From NCBI GenBank assembly GCA_002172675.1, contig NETF01000173.1:65447-97446 (forward strand): a stretch of DNA of 32,000 nt, written 5' to 3'. How positions within the stretch are numbered: position 1 is the first letter of the stretch; each line of letters starts with the position of its first letter. Shown piece after piece: positions 7,037 to 24,913 of the stretch. The translations under genes were made by a program, and so were the position numbers. Below the pieces are notes generated by a model. That model searched no databases and had not been told where the DNA came from. It saw only the letters and a list, made by a program, of their open reading frames with translations. The stretch comes from an unicellular cyanobacterium SU3 (lineage in GTDB: Bacteria > Cyanobacteriota > Cyanobacteriia > Cyanobacteriales > Microcystaceae).

Positions 7037-7597
7037 TTAAGTACGAGAAAAAGAAAGTATCCAAGTTCCTACATAAACCCGTAAAGGAATTTGCCCTGAA
7101 GTTAAAACATCAGCAATAAAGTAATAGGTTCCAGAACTAGGATTTTTGACGTTAGACATGACAATTTCTGCTGAATTCCCGGCTTCTAAAGGTTCTTTTA
7201 AGTCAATTTCTATTACTCGACTTTCTTTATCCCAATAAACTTCTCTAAGAGGGAGGGATTCGCCGTCAACTCGCACTTCTACAGAGTTGGTGTTAAATTT
7301 CCCATCAAATTCGGGATCTTTGAGATAAGAGATAAAAAACTTACTGACTCCTTGGGTTAATTTCTTCTTGGAAATACGCAGTCTGATACGTTCCCCAAAA
7401 AATTTAGGTCGTCCATTAAAGTCCATTTTATAGTCTAGGATGTCGCTGCGTTCTTCAACCCCACTAAAAATAACTAATCCTGAATTACCATTGGCAAGAG
7501 ACAAAGTTTGCACACCAGCTAATAAGCATCCCGATAAGGCTAACGTTGCCATAAAGCGTTTAGATAATCCTGCCGCTAAGGTTTTGACTTTATTCAT
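7037..7597 (-). CDS. DUF2808 domain protein (cyanobacteria-restricted, signal peptide)
   Basis: I start it at the internal ATG (7595-7597): MNKVKTLAAGLSKRFMATLALSGCLLAGVQTLSLA looks like a signal peptide. The body ...FSGVEERSDILDYKMDFNGRP...RLRISKKKL...VEVRVDGESLPLREVYWDKESRVIEIDL...NVKNPSSGTYYF...VGTWILSFS matches DUF2808 proteins as I recall them. The 61 upstream codons in the track ORF run over repeat-type intergenic sequence. Confidence 0.7.
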   Translation of the reverse strand: MNKVKTLAAGLSKRFMATLALSGCLLAGVQTLSLANGNSGLVIFSGVEERSDILDYKMDFNGRPKFFGERIRLRISKKKLTQGVSKFFISYLKDPEFDGKFNTNSVEVRVDGESLPLREVYWDKESRVIEIDLKEPLEAGNSAEIVMSNVKNPSSGTYYFIADVLTSGQIPLRVYVGTWILSFSRT

Positions 7598-9016: not shown

Positions 9017-9571
9017 ATGACACGAAACACTTATCAATGGACAATTGAACACTATCATCAAGCGATCGCTGCTGGATGTTTTGAGGATCAAGAGGTAGAA
9101 TTATTAAAAGGAGAAATTATTGTCATGACACCCGAAAGAGAAAGTCATGCTTACTATAATTCAGAATGTGCTGATTATTTAAAAGATTTACTGAAAAATC
9201 GCGCTAAAATTCGAGATGCTAAACCGATAACTTTACCTAATAATTCTGAACCCTCTCCAGATATTGCTATTGTTAAACCCTTGGGAAAAGAATATTTACA
9301 ACATCATCCTTATCCCGATGATATTTACTGGTTAATTGAGTTTTCTAAAGCAACGTTACGAAAAGATTTAACGGAGAAAAAAGCAATTTATGCAGAAGCA
9401 GAAATCAAAGAATATTGGATAGTTGATTTAAACAATTATCAGTTAAACGTTTTTAAAAACTTAAAAGAGGGTAATTACACGACAGAATTAACCTTAACTG
9501 AGGGTAATATTAGTCCTTTAGCTTTTCCTGATATCGTTATTCCTGTACAAAAAATCATCAGTATTAATTAA
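9017..9571 (+). CDS. Uma2-family (DUF820) PD-(D/E)xK endonuclease-like protein
   Basis: EHYHQAIAAGCFEDQEVELLKGEIIVMTPERESH ... PDIAIV ... LIEFSKATLRKDLTEKKAIYAEAEIKEYWIVDL follows the canonical Uma2 motif order. Confidence 0.8.
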   Translation: MTRNTYQWTIEHYHQAIAAGCFEDQEVELLKGEIIVMTPERESHAYYNSECADYLKDLLKNRAKIRDAKPITLPNNSEPSPDIAIVKPLGKEYLQHHPYPDDIYWLIEFSKATLRKDLTEKKAIYAEAEIKEYWIVDLNNYQLNVFKNLKEGNYTTELTLTEGNISPLAFPDIVIPVQKIISIN

Positions 9572-9882
9572 TCATCTGTTTGAGTTTCTTCTTGTTTCTT
9601 TTGATAGTCTATAATTCCTTGACGAAACCCCAAAGCAACTAAAATATTAGACAAAGTTAAAAAAGATTCTGCACTACCATGTAACCAATCAATATTAGCT
9701 AATACTTCGCCATACTGAACTTTAGCATAAATTCCAGCAGGAATGGTAACAGCTACAAATACTAATAAAACATAAAACCCAATTAATGCTAAACGAGGGG
9801 TTTCTTGGGAACGAGTAAGAAACCATAAAAATCCTAAATAGGGAAATAAAGAAACTGCAAAAAGATTATCTTTAGAAAACAT
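9568..9882 (-). CDS. Small conserved membrane protein (DUF3593-like)
   Basis: 104 aa with three hydrophobic segments. LFPYLGFLWFLTRS...PRLALIGFYVLLVFVAVTIPAGIYAK...DWLHGSAESFLTLSNILV resembles the cyanobacterial/plastid-lineage DUF3593 family, from memory. Its stop overlaps the Uma2 stop (TTAA at 9568-9571). Confidence 0.55.
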   Translation of the reverse strand: MFSKDNLFAVSLFPYLGFLWFLTRSQETPRLALIGFYVLLVFVAVTIPAGIYAKVQYGEVLANIDWLHGSAESFLTLSNILVALGFRQGIIDYQKKQEETQTDD

Positions 9883-9934: not shown

Positions 9935-10606
9935 TTAACTGTTGATCCAGCTTTTTATTGCTGCGATCGCAAATGCACCAACTGGATTATCTAATGCTTT
10001 TTCTAATGCGGCAAGTCCCCCGTCTTTTGCAGCAGTAATGAGTTTATATTTTAAAGTAGGATTATTTTCTATGATTTCTATGGTTTTGATGCCTTGGGTT
10101 GTAGTATTGTTGGGATAGTCTTGAGCAACTTGTTGATAAATCGTTTGTATTTCGGTGATAGCTTCAGTTAGGTTTTGAGAATTATAGTTATAGGTTGTAT
10201 TTTTGTTTCCTGCGACGTTATCACCACTACCAGAATGGGTTTGATTAATGTTTCCTTGGGACATTGCTTTTGCCTCTACATGAATGGGTTTACTTGCTAA
10301 TTGTTTGATGATATCTAATAATTCTCTATTTTGTTGATTATTGTTTGTTATTTGAGTTGGGTTAGGGTTTATTTCTTGAATAATTTCTAGTAAAGCATAG
10401 GTGAGTCTATTTCTCTCTCTTCTAATATCTTCAGAGGATAAAATATTTAGGCGATCGCTTTTTTGTAATTGTTTTAAACTGGCAGCATGAAGGATGATTT
10501 CGTTATGATAACGAGTGTTTTCTGTTATTTGTATAAGTTGAATAATTGCAGTTTCTAAATCTCCTTGTTGGATGATGTTTTGAATATTAGTCAGTTGAGG
10601 TTTCAT
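9935..10606 (-). CDS. Two-module hypothetical protein: N-terminal helical adaptor-like domain + G/N/S/T-rich linker + conserved cyanobacterial C-terminal helical tail
   Basis: 223 aa. The start ATG overlaps the upstream stop (ATGA at 10603-10606). The N-terminus (aa 5-79) aligns with the N-terminus of the 453-aa ABC protein. The C-terminal ...NLTEAITEIQTIYQQVAQDYPNNTT...IENNPTLKYKLITAAKDGGLAALEKALDNPVGAFAIAAIKSW is a tail I recall at the ends of many cyanobacterial multidomain (e.g. pentapeptide-repeat) proteins. Confidence 0.6.
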   Translation of the reverse strand: MKPQLTNIQNIIQQGDLETAIIQLIQITENTRYHNEIILHAASLKQLQKSDRLNILSSEDIRRERNRLTYALLEIIQEINPNPTQITNNNQQNRELLDIIKQLASKPIHVEAKAMSQGNINQTHSGSGDNVAGNKNTTYNYNSQNLTEAITEIQTIYQQVAQDYPNNTTTQGIKTIEIIENNPTLKYKLITAAKDGGLAALEKALDNPVGAFAIAAIKSWINS

Positions 10607-12249
10607 TTTTCTTTTGGGAGTGATAAATGTTTAATTAATATATGTTTTATATAAGGGAATGTCAGTATATAGGCTATAGTTAGTATTAGAAAATATGTTG
10701 TGTAAAATAAATAATTTTTTTCAAATATAAATTGACCAGCAGCATTTCCAGAATATAATTCTCTTGTAATGTATATGTTAGGTGGCTGACAAGATAGTGT
10801 TGTACCATAAACCATATTCATATTGCTATTTTTCTGTAACCATAATATAATTGGAATGGGAAAAACTGCAATTATCATTTCAATTAATATTAGATTTACT
10901 ATTAAAATTATTTTGTTAAACACATACTTTTTTTGTTTTCTACTTAAATAAAATAAAAACAAAAGTAACAATAAAATAATCATGAAATAACTGGTTAATA
11001 AAATTTGTTGATTAATTAAATTTTCAACAATCTCATTTAAAATGTTTTTCCCAATAAAGACCAAAATAGGTTTAGTTAAAATTAATAATAAAAAAGCTGG
11101 AATAAATATTAAAAACATCTCTAATGAGAAATATCTAAAATATAAACAAAACCAAAATATGATAATACTAAACACTATACTTAAAAAAATAAATGATGAA
11201 TAAAAGTAGCCTAAAATTATATCATTGAAATTGAATTTGTCTTTATAAATTTGCTCAAAATAATTGTTGCATATTTCAATTGCCATTGTTAACCAGGTAT
11301 CAACTTGTTTTTTTGATTTTATTGTCTTTCCTGTATATTTATTAATCAAAGAAAATAGATTATTATATTGTCTAGAAGCAAGAGACATTAAAATTTTTTG
11401 CTTTTTTATAGAATTATAAATATTATCCATCATTTCTTTTCCTTCATATTGAGAACAAATAGGATATAGAATTTGTGTTAAAAAAGGAGATGTCAAAAAC
11501 GTTAAGAGTTTACAATCTTCAATATTATTTTCACAACTAAAATTTGTAGTGCTTTCTAAAAAATTATTTAGGAAAAAGTAATTTTCATTAAAATTGATCC
11601 AATAACTATTAGCAATAATATTTTTTTTTATTTCTTTCGATCTTATATCAAATTTCAATTGATTGACAAATCGATAATTATAATCTAATATGTTTTCATG
11701 TGCCTTTTTTTCAAATAAAAACTGTTTTTCTTTTCCTGCTTCCCTTAATGAATCCAATTGTAGTTTTTCCATATTTAATAACTTTAAAATAACTAAATCT
11801 GAAGTTACTTCAAATTCATCAATAGGATAAGTTATCATTCTTATTTTAGTAACCGTGGAAAATATTACCGCAGGTGAAGCAAGAATAATCAAACAAAGTA
11901 AATATCCAAAAATATCAAATAACCAACCTTTCTTAAAATCAACTTTACCAAATTGTTTCTCAGGATTGTAAGCAATATTATAATAAAATTGTAGAATTAC
12001 CCAACCTATAATTCCTATACTATTAATAGCAAAGAAAACTTGTCCTAATTGAATTAATGTAGTGGTATGATATAGCTTAAAACGATAAAAACAAAGACCA
12101 ATTAATAATAATAAATTAACGATTCCTACATAATAACAAAGATAGTGAATTTTCAGCGTCCATAACCTCGGATGATTTAGTAAATAGTTTTGATCTATCC
12201 GTTGCAGGAAATTAGGATTAAGAGCTTTTTTAATAGATTTTAGTATCAT
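10603..12249 (-). CDS. Orphan polytopic membrane protein (~8 predicted TM segments split by a ~200-aa soluble insert)
   Basis: 548-aa uninterrupted ORF in ~20% G+C DNA. By-eye hydrophobic segments: 3 in aa ~30-135, 4 in aa ~345-475 and 1 near aa ~515-535. A K/N/E/F-rich soluble region spans aa ~135-345. I recognise no family signature. Confidence 0.65.
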   Translation of the reverse strand: MILKSIKKALNPNFLQRIDQNYLLNHPRLWTLKIHYLCYYVGIVNLLLLIGLCFYRFKLYHTTTLIQLGQVFFAINSIGIIGWVILQFYYNIAYNPEKQFGKVDFKKGWLFDIFGYLLCLIILASPAVIFSTVTKIRMITYPIDEFEVTSDLVILKLLNMEKLQLDSLREAGKEKQFLFEKKAHENILDYNYRFVNQLKFDIRSKEIKKNIIANSYWINFNENYFFLNNFLESTTNFSCENNIEDCKLLTFLTSPFLTQILYPICSQYEGKEMMDNIYNSIKKQKILMSLASRQYNNLFSLINKYTGKTIKSKKQVDTWLTMAIEICNNYFEQIYKDKFNFNDIILGYFYSSFIFLSIVFSIIIFWFCLYFRYFSLEMFLIFIPAFLLLILTKPILVFIGKNILNEIVENLINQQILLTSYFMIILLLLLFLFYLSRKQKKYVFNKIILIVNLILIEMIIAVFPIPIILWLQKNSNMNMVYGTTLSCQPPNIYITRELYSGNAAGQFIFEKNYLFYTTYFLILTIAYILTFPYIKHILIKHLSLPKEK

Positions 12250-12310
12250 AACTTAAGTAAGTAAAATTAATTATAAAATAGCGATCATAAGATAACAATC
12301 AAATTTTTTT

Positions 12311-12330
12311 CTCCTGACTCCTGACTCCTC
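12311..12330. repeat. Tandem heptamer CTCCTGA x2 plus CTCCTC in the ABC-to-membrane-gene spacer
   Basis: ctcctga ctcctga ctcctc read directly. On the coding (minus) strand this is GAGGAGTCAGGAGTCAGGAG followed by A7. Confidence 0.5.
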
Positions 12331-12339
12331 TCTTATTAC

Positions 12340-13701
12340 TTAACTCTCAAATAACTGACGAGTTGATTGACTAATATCTCTAAAATACTTAATAGAAACT
12401 TCATGATTTGCTAAAACTTCCAAAAATTCTGCACTGCTAACAGAAATAGGAACATAAAGAATAAAATTGCTACCAGATTCCTTAATCTTACTACAACCTA
12501 TTGGTTTCAACAGATTCATTAATAATTCTTGACTAACATCACAATTAATCTCATATATATTACAATTTCTATCCTTCTGAAACTCCGACATCAAACCATT
12601 ATATTTTGCTTCTCCATCCTTCAAAAAGATAATTTTATCTGCAATACTTTCTACCTCATATAAATGCTGTGAGCTAATAATTGCAGTTAATGGATCTTTC
12701 TGACTATTAAGAATACCTCTTAAATTTTGTAAAAATTTCCCTTGAGCATTAATATCTAAATTAGCTAATGGTTCATCAAAAACTAATAATTTTGGTTTCC
12801 AAACTAATGCTCTCGCTAAAGAAAAACGAGTTTTATAACCACTGGAAATCTCGTTCCATTTTGCTTGAGCATATTCTTCTAAACCTAACCGACTAATTAT
12901 CCAATCAACGTCATCAATATTATCTTGTCCTTTAATTCCGTTAATGGTTGCAGTAAAATGTAAATTAGTCATTAATGACCCATACCATTTCGGTAACTCT
13001 TGAGGAATATAAGCAATTTTTTGTTTAATCAAATACCAATCTTTTTTCTTATTTTTCATTAAAAGTGGATAAGTCAACTCTCCTTCACTAATAGCTAAAT
13101 CACCAGAAATTATCCGTAAAAGCGTTGTTTTACCGTTACCATTTTCTCCGACAACTGCCGTTATTTCTCCTAAATTTAATTCAATACTAATAGGAGATAA
13201 ACAAAAAATTACTCTTTTACTTTTATAAACTTTACTAATATTAATCCCTTTAACAACGGTTTGCGTTGTTTCTTCTTGTTTCCGTTTTTCCTTCAAAAAG
13301 TTCTCTTTTGCTATTTCATATTTAGTTCTAAAATCTTGAGAAGACTTTTGTTCTTGATTTTCTGAAGTATTATTTATAACTGATGTTTCAGAAATTGAAT
13401 TATTATAATCTAAATTACGTTGATTATATTCATCAATAATAGAATCCTTAAACTCTAAAATTTGTACTATTAACCTTCTAACTTCTAAATTATACTTATC
13501 ATACGCTATCACCCCTAAACGATTTTGATCATTTAAAAGTTTGTATTGATTGTTTATAACAATAACTTCTCTGCGTTTAGCACGATCAATAGAAAATTCT
13601 CTCTGAAAATCCATCAATTGCGTAGTAGCAGCATCTAAGTTATTATTAGTAATAAGTTCTTCAATTTCTTCTGATCTTGATAAAGGATCTTGAGCAGACA
13701 T
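12340..13701 (-). CDS. ABC transporter ATP-binding protein (ABC-2/DrrA-NatA-like NBD with C-terminal DUF4162-like domain) carrying an extra ~95-aa N-terminal helical domain
   Basis: Walker A GENGNGKTT, Q-loop IAYIPQE, divergent signature ISSGYKTRF, Walker B LLVFDEP, D-loop ANLD, H-switch SSQHL. The C-terminal ~80 aa ends ...STRQLFES. The NBD starts only at aa ~150, preceded by a helical domain (aa ~10-92) and an N/S/E/Q/K-rich linker. Confidence 0.85.
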   Translation of the reverse strand: MSAQDPLSRSEEIEELITNNNLDAATTQLMDFQREFSIDRAKRREVIVINNQYKLLNDQNRLGVIAYDKYNLEVRRLIVQILEFKDSIIDEYNQRNLDYNNSISETSVINNTSENQEQKSSQDFRTKYEIAKENFLKEKRKQEETTQTVVKGINISKVYKSKRVIFCLSPISIELNLGEITAVVGENGNGKTTLLRIISGDLAISEGELTYPLLMKNKKKDWYLIKQKIAYIPQELPKWYGSLMTNLHFTATINGIKGQDNIDDVDWIISRLGLEEYAQAKWNEISSGYKTRFSLARALVWKPKLLVFDEPLANLDINAQGKFLQNLRGILNSQKDPLTAIISSQHLYEVESIADKIIFLKDGEAKYNGLMSEFQKDRNCNIYEINCDVSQELLMNLLKPIGCSKIKESGSNFILYVPISVSSAEFLEVLANHEVSIKYFRDISQSTRQLFES

Positions 13702-21379: not shown

Positions 21380-21497
21380 TTCAGTTATGTTGTGAGATAA
21401 TCTAATCTCCGCTCTATCCTTATTCTTAAAGCAGTTAAAAATAGAGCTTTCTACTTTAATTATAAAGGATAATTCAATACCATTGATTAATAGTTAA

Positions 21498-21512
21498 TCA
21501 TAATTATTCTCA
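21498..21512. promoter_or_regulatory. Fur-box-like 7-1-7 motif (copy A)
   Basis: TCATAATTATTCTCA matches the classical 7-1-7 Fur consensus TGATAATNATTATCA at 12/14 specified positions. It sits between the divergent HMA2/ATPase operon and the rhodanese gene. Confidence 0.3.
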
Positions 21513-21578
21513 ATAATATTTGATGATGACTTTCAAGAGTTGAGAAGCGATCGCCACTATTCTTTACCATCTCTTAAC
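21501..21578. repeat. 78-nt conserved intergenic element, copy A
   Basis: taattattctcaataatatttgatgatgactttcaagagttgagaagcgatcgccactattctttaccatctcttaac. It matches 24653-24730 at 72/78, ungapped and in the same orientation. Confidence 0.85.
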
Positions 21579-21696
21579 TTTACCCTTTTACCTTTTTCCT
21601 AGCAGCATAGTGTTTGTCAATCTTTTATAACAAAATTTTACAAACTGTTAATATTCTGTTACATTAGAAAAGTAGCAACTTCACACAAAAGTTTTT

Positions 21697-24385: not shown

Positions 24386-24649
24386 GGTGAATTCTCAAAA
24401 ATTGACACAGTATTAATCAATAATTTCTTTCATTAACTGAGTTTAATGAGGTCGAATCATCAACGTTTTTCTCAATCTTGAGAAAAGCATTATTTAGTAA
24501 TCAATTGTTTGACAGAGAAAACTCGAATTAAACAACGTAAATATTGTTTAATTTATTTCAAATAGCGATGTCCGCAGTCTTAAACTCACTATCTTTGCAG
24601 AGGCTTGAGGATAGTCAGCCCCATAGATTAATTGTTGTCCTGAAGCTAA

Positions 24650-24664
24650 TAATAACTATTCTCA
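24650..24664. promoter_or_regulatory. Fur-box-like 7-1-7 motif (copy B)
   Basis: TAATAACTATTCTCA matches TGATAATNATTATCA at 11/14. It lies ~265 nt upstream of the feoA start, in a 528-bp intergenic region. Confidence 0.3.
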
Positions 24665-24730
24665 ATAATATTTTATAATGACTTTCAAGAGTTGAGAAGC
24701 GATCGCCACGATTCTTTACTATCTCTTAAT
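24653..24730. repeat. 78-nt conserved intergenic element, copy B
   Basis: taactattctcaataatattttataatgactttcaagagttgagaagcgatcgccacgattctttactatctcttaat. It matches 21501-21578 at 72/78. Confidence 0.85.
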
Positions 24731-24913
24731 ATAAAAATTTTTACTTCTCTGCTATGTCTTCATTCTATTGTCTTTAACATTAGTTTACATAAGTGATTAA
24801 AGCAATTATTTCTTAAAATTTTGTTAGCAAATATGGGTCAACTCTGAAAGCTACACTAGAGTTAACAGAACCAAGAAAGATTCGGTAAAAAATAGTAACT
24901 TTTTATACCAAAA

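Follow-up and report, generated by a model that had tools for sequence, protein, structure and literature searches.

A locus of three genes in the unicellular cyanobacterium SU3 encodes an ATP-binding cassette (ABC) ATPase, a protein with eight transmembrane (TM) segments and a small protein; the first and the last of these both begin with an effector-associated domain (EAD) of the EAD11 family. The locus is found in a 32,000 nt stretch of contig NETF01000173.1 (positions 65,447-97,446). This entire stretch is termed the window, and coordinates are counted from its start. On balance, and judged from sequence, the locus probably represents an EAD11-coupled conflict system, of defence or of programmed cell death, with an ABC transporter-like membrane core. 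It is most likely not a housekeeping pump. A first-pass annotation of this DNA had suggested that the locus could be a defence or stress effector and not a housekeeping exporter, and that suggestion is backed by CHAT, EAD7, TIR and trypsin domains in related loci. The defence reading gains support because EAD11 is there combined with CHAT or with EAD7, or TIR or trypsin is carried on the ATPase.

The three open reading frames are on the minus strand, as first annotated, and are numbered 1 to 3 in transcription order:

12340-13701, minus strand: gene 1, EAD11-linker-ABC ATPase of 453 amino acids (aa) (open reading frame; Pfam EAD11 and ABC_tran)
12250-12339, minus strand: spacer of 90 nt between genes 1 and 2, with GGAGTCAGGAGTCAGGAG and a promoter-like TTGTTA-17-TATAAT
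10603-12249, minus strand: gene 2, 8-TM protein of 548 aa (open reading frame, hydropathy, family search)
9935-10606, minus strand: gene 3, protein of 223 aa consisting of EAD11, a disordered linker and a helical C-tail (open reading frame, Pfam, AlphaFold2 (AF2) model)

The ATGA stop/start overlap reported for genes 2 and 3 is present at 10603-10606 (minus strand, GAAAAATGAAACC); at this junction GAA AAA TGA overlaps ATG AAA CCT. The spacer between genes 1 and 2 has the 90 nt claimed for it. Its GGAGTCAGGAGTCAGGAG consists of 2.5 copies of GGAGTCA. Such a spacer is missing from most other loci, where the two genes share a 4 nt overlap. A promoter and terminator scan gave nothing above shuffled expectation.

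Comparisons are based on 14 inspected ATPase loci: the window locus, L001, L003, L004, L005, L007, L009, L012, L015, L016, L018, L028, L029 and L030. A genome scan gave six loci and a metagenome scan eight, each by one peptide pattern only. A partial locus that does not include the ATPase end, L002, is kept apart from the 14. L001 and L003 are Crocosphaera loci and serve as the reference orthologues for identities with the window. The closest homologues of the three genes suggest that the host is a relative of Crocosphaera.

The ATPase encoded by gene 1 has four parts:

13444-13671, minus strand: EAD11 domain of the gene 1-type subfamily, aa 11-86 (Pfam PF19964)
13255-13443, minus strand: low-complexity linker rich in N, S, Q, E and K, aa 87-149 (sequence; variable alignment columns)
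12580-13254, minus strand: nucleotide-binding domain (NBD), aa 150-374 (complete ABC motifs)
12343-12579, minus strand: C-terminal domain, aa 375-453, which ends in YFRDIS.STR.LF, with F440-F451 near-invariant

The N-terminal extension of ~150 aa is real, as the ABC domain begins at about aa 150; NCBIfam alignments start at that residue, and Pfam ABC_tran matches aa 168-313 with 86.5 bits. Also correct is the description of the NBD as catalytically complete. Walker A (GENGNGKT, 185-192), the Q-loop (Q234), the signature (SSGYK, 286-290), Walker B with its glutamate (LLVFDE, E310), the D-loop (ANLD) and the H-switch (H346) are all there, and these catalytic motifs are near-invariant across 120 family members. 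Both the window protein (SSGYK) and the family consensus (SGGYK) have a variant signature. Among solved structures, the NBDs of ABCA1/3/4/7 (type V/ABC-2-like) come closest. The protein is below every NCBIfam equivalog cut-off, the best score being 137 bits versus 380. Within PADLOC-DB v2, gene 1 aligns only with P-loop segments or with a partial C-terminal ABC stretch of unrelated ATPase models; 'mad3' and the other ATPase matches were rejected as generic P-loop/ABC similarity.

Homology searches detected well over 100 relatives of gene 1, of 420-500 aa, with ~98% coverage of gene 1 and 40-50% identity. Their hosts are Nostoc, Desmonostoc, Microcystis, Trichodesmium, Xenococcus and Crocosphaera, and also an Anaerolineae metagenome-assembled genome (MAG), Sulfurovum and Bacteroidota. 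The end motif YFRDIS.STR.LF of this family (window 12343-12381, aa 440-452) is not a standard feature of ABC NBDs; either the TM protein or EAD11 may make contact there.

The idea that the N-terminal domains of genes 1 and 3 are adaptors of the EAD type is borne out by Pfam, where both exceed the EAD11 (PF19964) gathering score of 26: gene 1 with 40.8 bits at aa 11-86 and gene 3 with 61.4 bits at aa 6-79. Profiles of the gene 3-type and gene 1-type domains align in hhalign with a probability of 97% and E of 1.2e-10. The further claim that genes 1 and 3 carry the same N-terminal domain stands in that both are EAD11 and are significantly similar, but the window copies are 26% identical and are not the same domain in a narrower sense. 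They fall into two old subfamilies and do not stem from a recent duplication. Across genomes, matches within a type have E of 1e-24 to 1e-44, and matches between types E of 1e-6 to 1e-14.

ABC_tran was found in 108/108 members of the gene 1 family that were scanned, and Pfam EAD11 at E <= 1e-3 in 43 of them; with a hidden Markov model (HMM) built here for the gene 1-type N-domain, all ATPases of the family that were inspected give a match (E 1e-15 to 1e-37), in the N-terminal region or, for the TIR and trypsin fusions, farther inside. An extra trypsin domain is present in two of the 108 and an extra TIR domain in one. These fusions are arranged as TIR or trypsin, EAD11, linker and ABC, such that the EAD11-like domain is kept internally.

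In the EAD principle described by Kaur et al., the core NTPase carries an adaptor copy at one of its termini, and another copy is found on a variable protein of the same operon (eLife 2020, PMC7159879; eLife 2021, PMC8195603). This arrangement, a core NTPase and a separate operon protein that both carry the domain, is found in the window, L001, L003, L004, L005, L009, L012, L018 and L030, and in part in L002. What is joined to the second EAD varies between loci: CHAT in some, EAD7 or one of two unrelated helical tails in others, and in some nothing; the partner in the window is non-enzymatic.

The loci are consistent in their order. A gene of the TM family follows the ATPase gene in 14/14 loci, with a decayed TM copy placed between in L001, and most ATPase-TM junctions are 4 nt overlaps or gaps of <=8 nt. 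An EAD11 protein follows the TM gene in 9/14 loci and also in partial L002. Co-conservation of the genes is thereby upheld; likewise the membrane protein proved to be no known permease and the two N-terminal domains proved to be similar, so that none of the three findings named beforehand as contrary to the annotation was made. The third position itself is variable:

Window, L001, L003 and partial L002: EAD11 with tail type 1
Microcystis, Trichodesmium and the second Crocosphaera triad, L012: EAD11 with another helical tail
Nostoc and Desmonostoc: EAD11 with CHAT, the catalytic HG and C being present
Anaerolineae MAG: CHAT alone
L030: EAD11 with EAD7
Sulfurovum: stand-alone EAD11, upstream of the ATPase
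L007 and L015: no third gene; the ATPase itself has trypsin or TIR
L029 (Bacteroidota): ATPase-TM pair alone, with no EAD11 or effector gene

The CHAT domains of the Nostoc and Desmonostoc third proteins score 30.8 and 36.3 bits (gathering score 24). In Microcystis, a caspase gene is situated directly upstream.

Gene 2 encodes the membrane protein, which is divided as follows:

11845-12249, minus strand: conserved N-module, aa 1-135, with a basic motif and TM1-3 (orthologue identity)
11200-11844, minus strand: variable all-helical insert, aa ~136-350, predicted to be extracytoplasmic (identity, positive-inside rule)
10606-11199, minus strand: TM4-8 bundle and conserved cytoplasmic C-terminal motif (identity, blastn, motif)

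The layout of 3+5 hydrophobic segments around a soluble insert was correctly described; the insert measures 221 aa where ~200 had been claimed. By hydropathy, 83/93 family members have three TM segments, an insert and four to five TM segments, and the insert ranges from 31 to 262 aa. Gene 2 had been termed an orphan that is not a recognisable ABC-2 permease and cannot be placed in any family. The absence of a recognised ABC-2 permease match was reproduced, but the protein is not an orphan, as it belongs to a conserved, unnamed family. A word-indexed search detected five clusters, all from Crocosphaera MAGs; when 1.84 billion representatives (50% identity clusters) were searched exhaustively with an HMM, 99 relatives came up at E <= 1e-3, most of which align over the first ~150 residues. 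The N-terminal motif LNP.FLQ.ID..YLLN.PRLW..K.HY is common to the middle genes of distant loci, and within it D19, L23, P27 and W30 are invariant or almost so. A second family motif, PY.K..L...L.LPKE., is C-terminal (PY.K..L...LSLPKEK in the window).

Among 78 family members there is no credible Pfam match (three unrelated single matches have E >= 0.005), and no Pfam permease family is matched by any of the 78 at E <= 0.01. A PDB profile search with the family gave TM noise only, and gene 2 has no match in PADLOC or PHROGs. The positive-inside rule predicts cytoplasmic termini and an outside insert in 6/6 homologues tested. A conserved disulfide was considered as support for an outside insert and rejected; 35/93 members have no insert cysteine, and cysteines are as dense elsewhere in the protein as they are in the insert. 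An AF2 model of gene 2, computed from a four-sequence alignment, is unusable (predicted local distance difference test score, pLDDT, 43.9).

The three genes evolve at very unequal rates. Between the window and L001, gene 1 is 83% identical, gene 3 86% and gene 2 47%; between the window and L003 the values are 73%, 83% and 34%, respectively. Within gene 2 itself, the N-module is 61-83% identical among three Crocosphaera orthologues, the insert 26-55% and TM4-8 22-40%. The window segment 10730-11303 (gene 2 aa ~316-506) has no blastn match to L001, and its flanks are 87-92% identical. This mosaic pattern, a hypervariable stretch within conserved DNA, suggests recombination or cassette replacement. 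A diversity-generating retroelement or template repeat was sought for the variable part and rejected, as there is no related repeat anywhere in the window.

Copies of the TM gene are also gained and lost. In the interval between the ATPase and TM genes of L001 (L001:7377-8004) are two small open reading frames of 118 and 72 aa. They are what is left of the N- and C-terminal ends of a second TM gene that has suffered an internal deletion; L001 nt 7368-7495 match window 12258-12131 with 86% identity. L015, the TIR-ABC locus, has two TM paralogues in tandem, both of them intact, and one Crocosphaera MAG (MO_167.B6) holds two complete paralogous triads, L012 and L010. The two triads differ in TM-insert length (559 vs 364 aa) and in the tail of the third protein.

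The third protein of the window, encoded by gene 3, contains:

10370-10591, minus strand: EAD11 domain of the gene 3 type, aa 6-79 (Pfam; four helices, pLDDT 81-91)
10181-10360, minus strand: disordered linker rich in N, Q and G, aa 83-142 (pLDDT <50; motif SGSGDNVAG)
9938-10180, minus strand: five-helix C-tail, aa 143-223 (pLDDT 66-83)

The AF2 model displays two confident helical domains joined by the disordered linker. No structural or sequence relative of gene 3 was found in the PDB, where the profile search gave coiled-coil/TM noise only, and there is no PADLOC match. A similarity to GapS6a (NF047935, GAPS6) was rejected as noise: the score is 23.5 bits versus 90, and the alignment (aa 65-135) runs from the last part of EAD11 into the low-complexity linker.

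A motif in the linker, [ST]GDN[VI], is common to gene 3 and the third proteins of Microcystis, Trichodesmium and L012, and could represent a processing or recognition site. It is located at window 10200-10245 (gene 3 aa ~122-134), and is found in the third proteins of L005, L012 and L018 despite their unrelated C-tails. It also occurs in P0014 and P0015, which are non-EAD11 proteins with tail type 1.

The C-tail is likewise not confined to EAD11 proteins. It is found on proteins that do not carry EAD11 (P0014-P0018), small proteins included, and by tblastn on 30 cyanobacterial plasmids; no Pfam model of it exists. Two of the tail proteins were inspected whole, and in both the tail forms the last ~85 aa of a pentapeptide-repeat protein of ~680 aa. 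One of these genes, on plasmid pCC7120epsilon of Nostoc PCC 7120 (L031), adjoins a gene for a NACHT NTPase. The other, on a Tolypothrix plasmid (L032), is ~3 kb from a MoxR gene, with GUN4 and WD40 genes also near. The tail had been described as one known from the ends of cyanobacterial multidomain signalling proteins. It does form the ends of pentapeptide-repeat proteins, but the signalling part of that description is not demonstrable.

A mechanism may be hypothesized from this arrangement. A dimer of the ATPase would dock on the 8-TM protein through the conserved cytoplasmic N- and C-terminal motifs of the latter. The fast-evolving part of the membrane protein, including the predicted extracytoplasmic insert, would sense a cue from the envelope or from an invader, and ATP binding and hydrolysis would turn this cue into a conformational change, i.e., into signalling or mechanotransmission and not substrate export. 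The N-terminal EAD11 of the ATPase would be altered in turn. This domain would pair with the EAD11 of the third protein, which in sister loci would bring in a CHAT/caspase-like protease or a second adaptor, EAD7. The third protein of the window would deliver a helical tail of the type found in pentapeptide proteins and would act as a bridging adaptor to partners encoded elsewhere. The window partner has no enzyme. Bridging adaptor is the best guess for gene 3 because of the EAD11+EAD7 precedent and the recurrence of the tail on pentapeptide-repeat proteins beside or near NACHT and MoxR genes.

A more elaborate version of this scheme is possible, but its probability is modest at about one in four. 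Here the locus would represent an outside-in immune receptor, in which a hypervariable, cassette-swapping loop of gene 2 detects phage contact or envelope attack, the ABC core transduces the signal and EAD11 nucleates CHAT, TIR, trypsin or adaptors. If true, such a receptor would be a formal analogue, on an ABC chassis, of the animal pathway from death receptor through death-domain adaptor to caspase.

Several observations weigh against a conflict system. The window locus is situated amid core-chromosome housekeeping genes, outside any defence island, and the orthologous Crocosphaera loci are likewise among housekeeping genes (TamB, DUF2808, DUF3593, fasciclin, amylase). No relatives of gene 2 were found on viral contigs, phages (PHROGs) or plasmids, none of gene 3 on phages or in PHROGs, and no recognisable enzymatic effector is present in gene 3 of the window. 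In the pattern of Kaur et al. 2020 (PMC7159879), the EADs of neighbouring genes resemble one another more than they resemble any other copies; this is not followed here, as the adjacent EAD11 copies are not mutual closest relatives. EAD11 could also be intrinsic to the ATPase, since it is constant even in the TIR and trypsin fusions. With respect to the membrane protein, the outside position of the insert is drawn solely from hydropathy and the positive-inside rule, insert cysteines are not enriched, and an ABC-2-like permease fold may yet apply because the AF2 model is unusable.

The last point bears on a first alternative, a conventional ABC-2-type exporter with a divergent permease and a lipid, peptide or polysaccharide substrate, in which the EAD11 parts regulate or localise the pump. 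Its NBD is of the transporter type, closest to ABCA NBDs, and NCBIfam matches include many transporter NBDs; exporters classically have their NBD gene directly before a multi-TM gene to which it is translationally coupled; and the surroundings of housekeeping genes as well as the lack of a usable AF2 fold for gene 2 would agree with it. However, every NCBIfam score is far under the equivalog cut-off, 0/78 members of the TM family match a Pfam permease, and the 3+5 layout with an insert of 31-262 aa speaks against it. Evolution of the TM protein is much more rapid than that of the ATPase, and partners such as TIR, trypsin, CHAT and EAD7 typify conflict systems and not exporters. An exporter is therefore considered unlikely.

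Two other possibilities assign a different part to the proteins of the locus. Gene 2 might itself be the effector, a membrane-permeabilising protein gated by the ATPase, with EAD11 proteins as docked sensors, regulators or extra effectors. Such a role would fit the two-gene versions that have no separate effector gene (L029, and L016 with a stand-alone EAD11 only) and the lack of an enzymatic domain in the third protein of the window. It is nevertheless rather improbable, as a conserved N-module with a fast-diversifying remainder suits a sensor or target surface better than a pore, and enzymatic effectors are added in many loci. Alternatively, the locus might encode a secretion system in which the EAD11 of the ATPase docks cargo and the EAD11-tagged proteins are exported toxins. 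C39 or C39-like domains of peptidase-containing ABC transporters (PCAT) and type 1 secretion ABC exporters are cargo-docking domains of this kind. Here too an N-terminal non-catalytic domain of the ATPase recurs at the N-terminus of variable downstream proteins, and the disordered linker of gene 3 holds a short conserved motif, a potential processing site. But TIR and trypsin domains fused directly to the cytoplasmic ATPase cannot be cargo, and export of the partners is disfavoured on this account; EAD7 is an adaptor and not a toxin; and no conserved outer-membrane or periplasmic adaptor genes are present in the inspected loci. Secretion is thus quite improbable. The EAD11-coupled conflict system is retained as the preferred reading.

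With respect to base composition and surroundings, the block is AT-rich as reported, with 22-29% GC versus 35-45% in the flanks. GC at third codon positions (GC3) is 0.17 for both genes 1 and 2, and 0.13-0.24 for small genes nearby. As the values are similar, the low GC of gene 2 is attributed largely to amino acid composition, and low GC is a weak sign of recent transfer in the window. In Nostoc and Microcystis, the GC3 of the triad is below that of its neighbours.

Genes surrounding the locus in the window encode TamB, DUF2808, Uma2, DUF3593, fasciclin, Mo-nitro_C, amylase, P-type ATPase, FeoB, RPE65 and a ClpB-like protein. The DUF3593 gene (9568-9882, minus) is 52 nt beyond gene 3 and on the same strand, and it follows gene 3 in three Crocosphaera-type loci (window, L001, L003) whose remaining flanks differ. 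It was ruled out as a fourth component and probably represents lineage synteny, since the loci of Nostoc, Microcystis and Trichodesmium do not have it. A gene of the Uma2 family (9017-9571, plus), which is putatively restriction endonuclease-like, converges on DUF3593 with a 4 nt overlap; in L002 a Uma2 gene is found directly after the gene 3 orthologue. Farther away, a 103 nt direct repeat of 85% identity (21492-21594 and 24644-24746), together with a 32 nt inverted pair (21609-21640 and 24814-24845), brackets the rhodanese and FeoB genes.

In relation to known systems, none of those described in PADLOC-DB v2 is matched by the components of the locus, gene 1 giving generic matches only and genes 2 and 3 none. 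Neither EAD11 in this sense nor an ABC-based EAD system was found in the literature searched, with the Krishnan et al. 2020 classification of ABC ATPases outside the coverage. The domain and its fusion to ABC are implicitly catalogued, because a Pfam EAD11 model exists. On the preferred reading, an ABC transporter chassis would here carry an EAD-coupled conflict system; its TM family is undescribed, but the system is not categorically new. The newly defined elements are this TM family, with ~100 clusters, and the recurrent cyanobacterial C-terminal module; the former is likewise not covered by a Pfam model.

With type V/ABC-2 exporters such as DrrAB, Wzm-Wzt and ABCA/ABCG, the locus has in common the sequence class of the NBD, intact catalytic motifs, and a gene order in which a membrane protein is encoded directly after the NBD, with translational coupling. 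These exporters have a recognised 6-TM permease, whereas gene 2 has no Pfam permease match and displays eight TM segments, three before and five after an insert that is large and variable. The NBD differs further in its N-terminal EAD11 and invariant C-terminal motif, and conserved substrate-related genes are not found near the present loci.

Similar in concept are MacB, FtsEX, LolCDE and BceAB, where ABC hydrolysis drives signalling or trans-membrane work and not transport through the TM domains, and where a large extracytoplasmic domain is placed between TM helices. The same concept is proposed here. The locus differs from these mechanotransmitting systems in that it displays no FtsX or MacB_PCD homology and has another TM number and layout, and in that its proposed output is directed inward to cytoplasmic EAD11 partners instead of outward.

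Soluble ABC defence systems (OLD/Gabija GajA, PARIS AriA, Septu PtuA) resemble the locus in being multi-gene and in using an ABC-fold ATPase as a nucleotide-dependent switch. In Gabija, PARIS, Septu and Lamassu, however, the ATPases are soluble, SMC/RecF/OLD-like, and have nucleases or soluble middle components as partners. ABC-3C (Krishnan et al. 2020) is also said to be a soluble ABC-ATPase conflict system.

The EAD-coupled systems are near relatives. They share a small, helical, non-catalytic adaptor that occurs both on the core NTPase and on a variable operon partner, the domain itself is a Pfam EAD family, the partners are caspase/CHAT, TIR, trypsin or other EADs, and many members are found in filamentous or colonial cyanobacteria. 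Known cores are MoxR-vWA-VMAP/iSTAND, STAND NTPases and GAP1 GTPases (PMC7159879, PMC8195603); ABC and EAD11 are both absent from the main texts of Kaur et al. (PMC7159879, PMC8195603). The present core, in contrast, consists of an ABC NBD of the transporter type, to which an 8-TM protein is dedicated as partner, and the two EAD11 copies per locus come from distinct old subfamilies. Hosts include bloom-forming and nitrogen-fixing cyanobacteria, namely Microcystis, Trichodesmium, Nostoc and Crocosphaera, in which phage defence and caspase-linked death are poorly understood. A transporter-type ABC switch tied to a diversifying membrane protein would extend both the ABC-defence and the EAD classes to the cell envelope, and would offer a candidate mechanism for the sensing of threats at the membrane.

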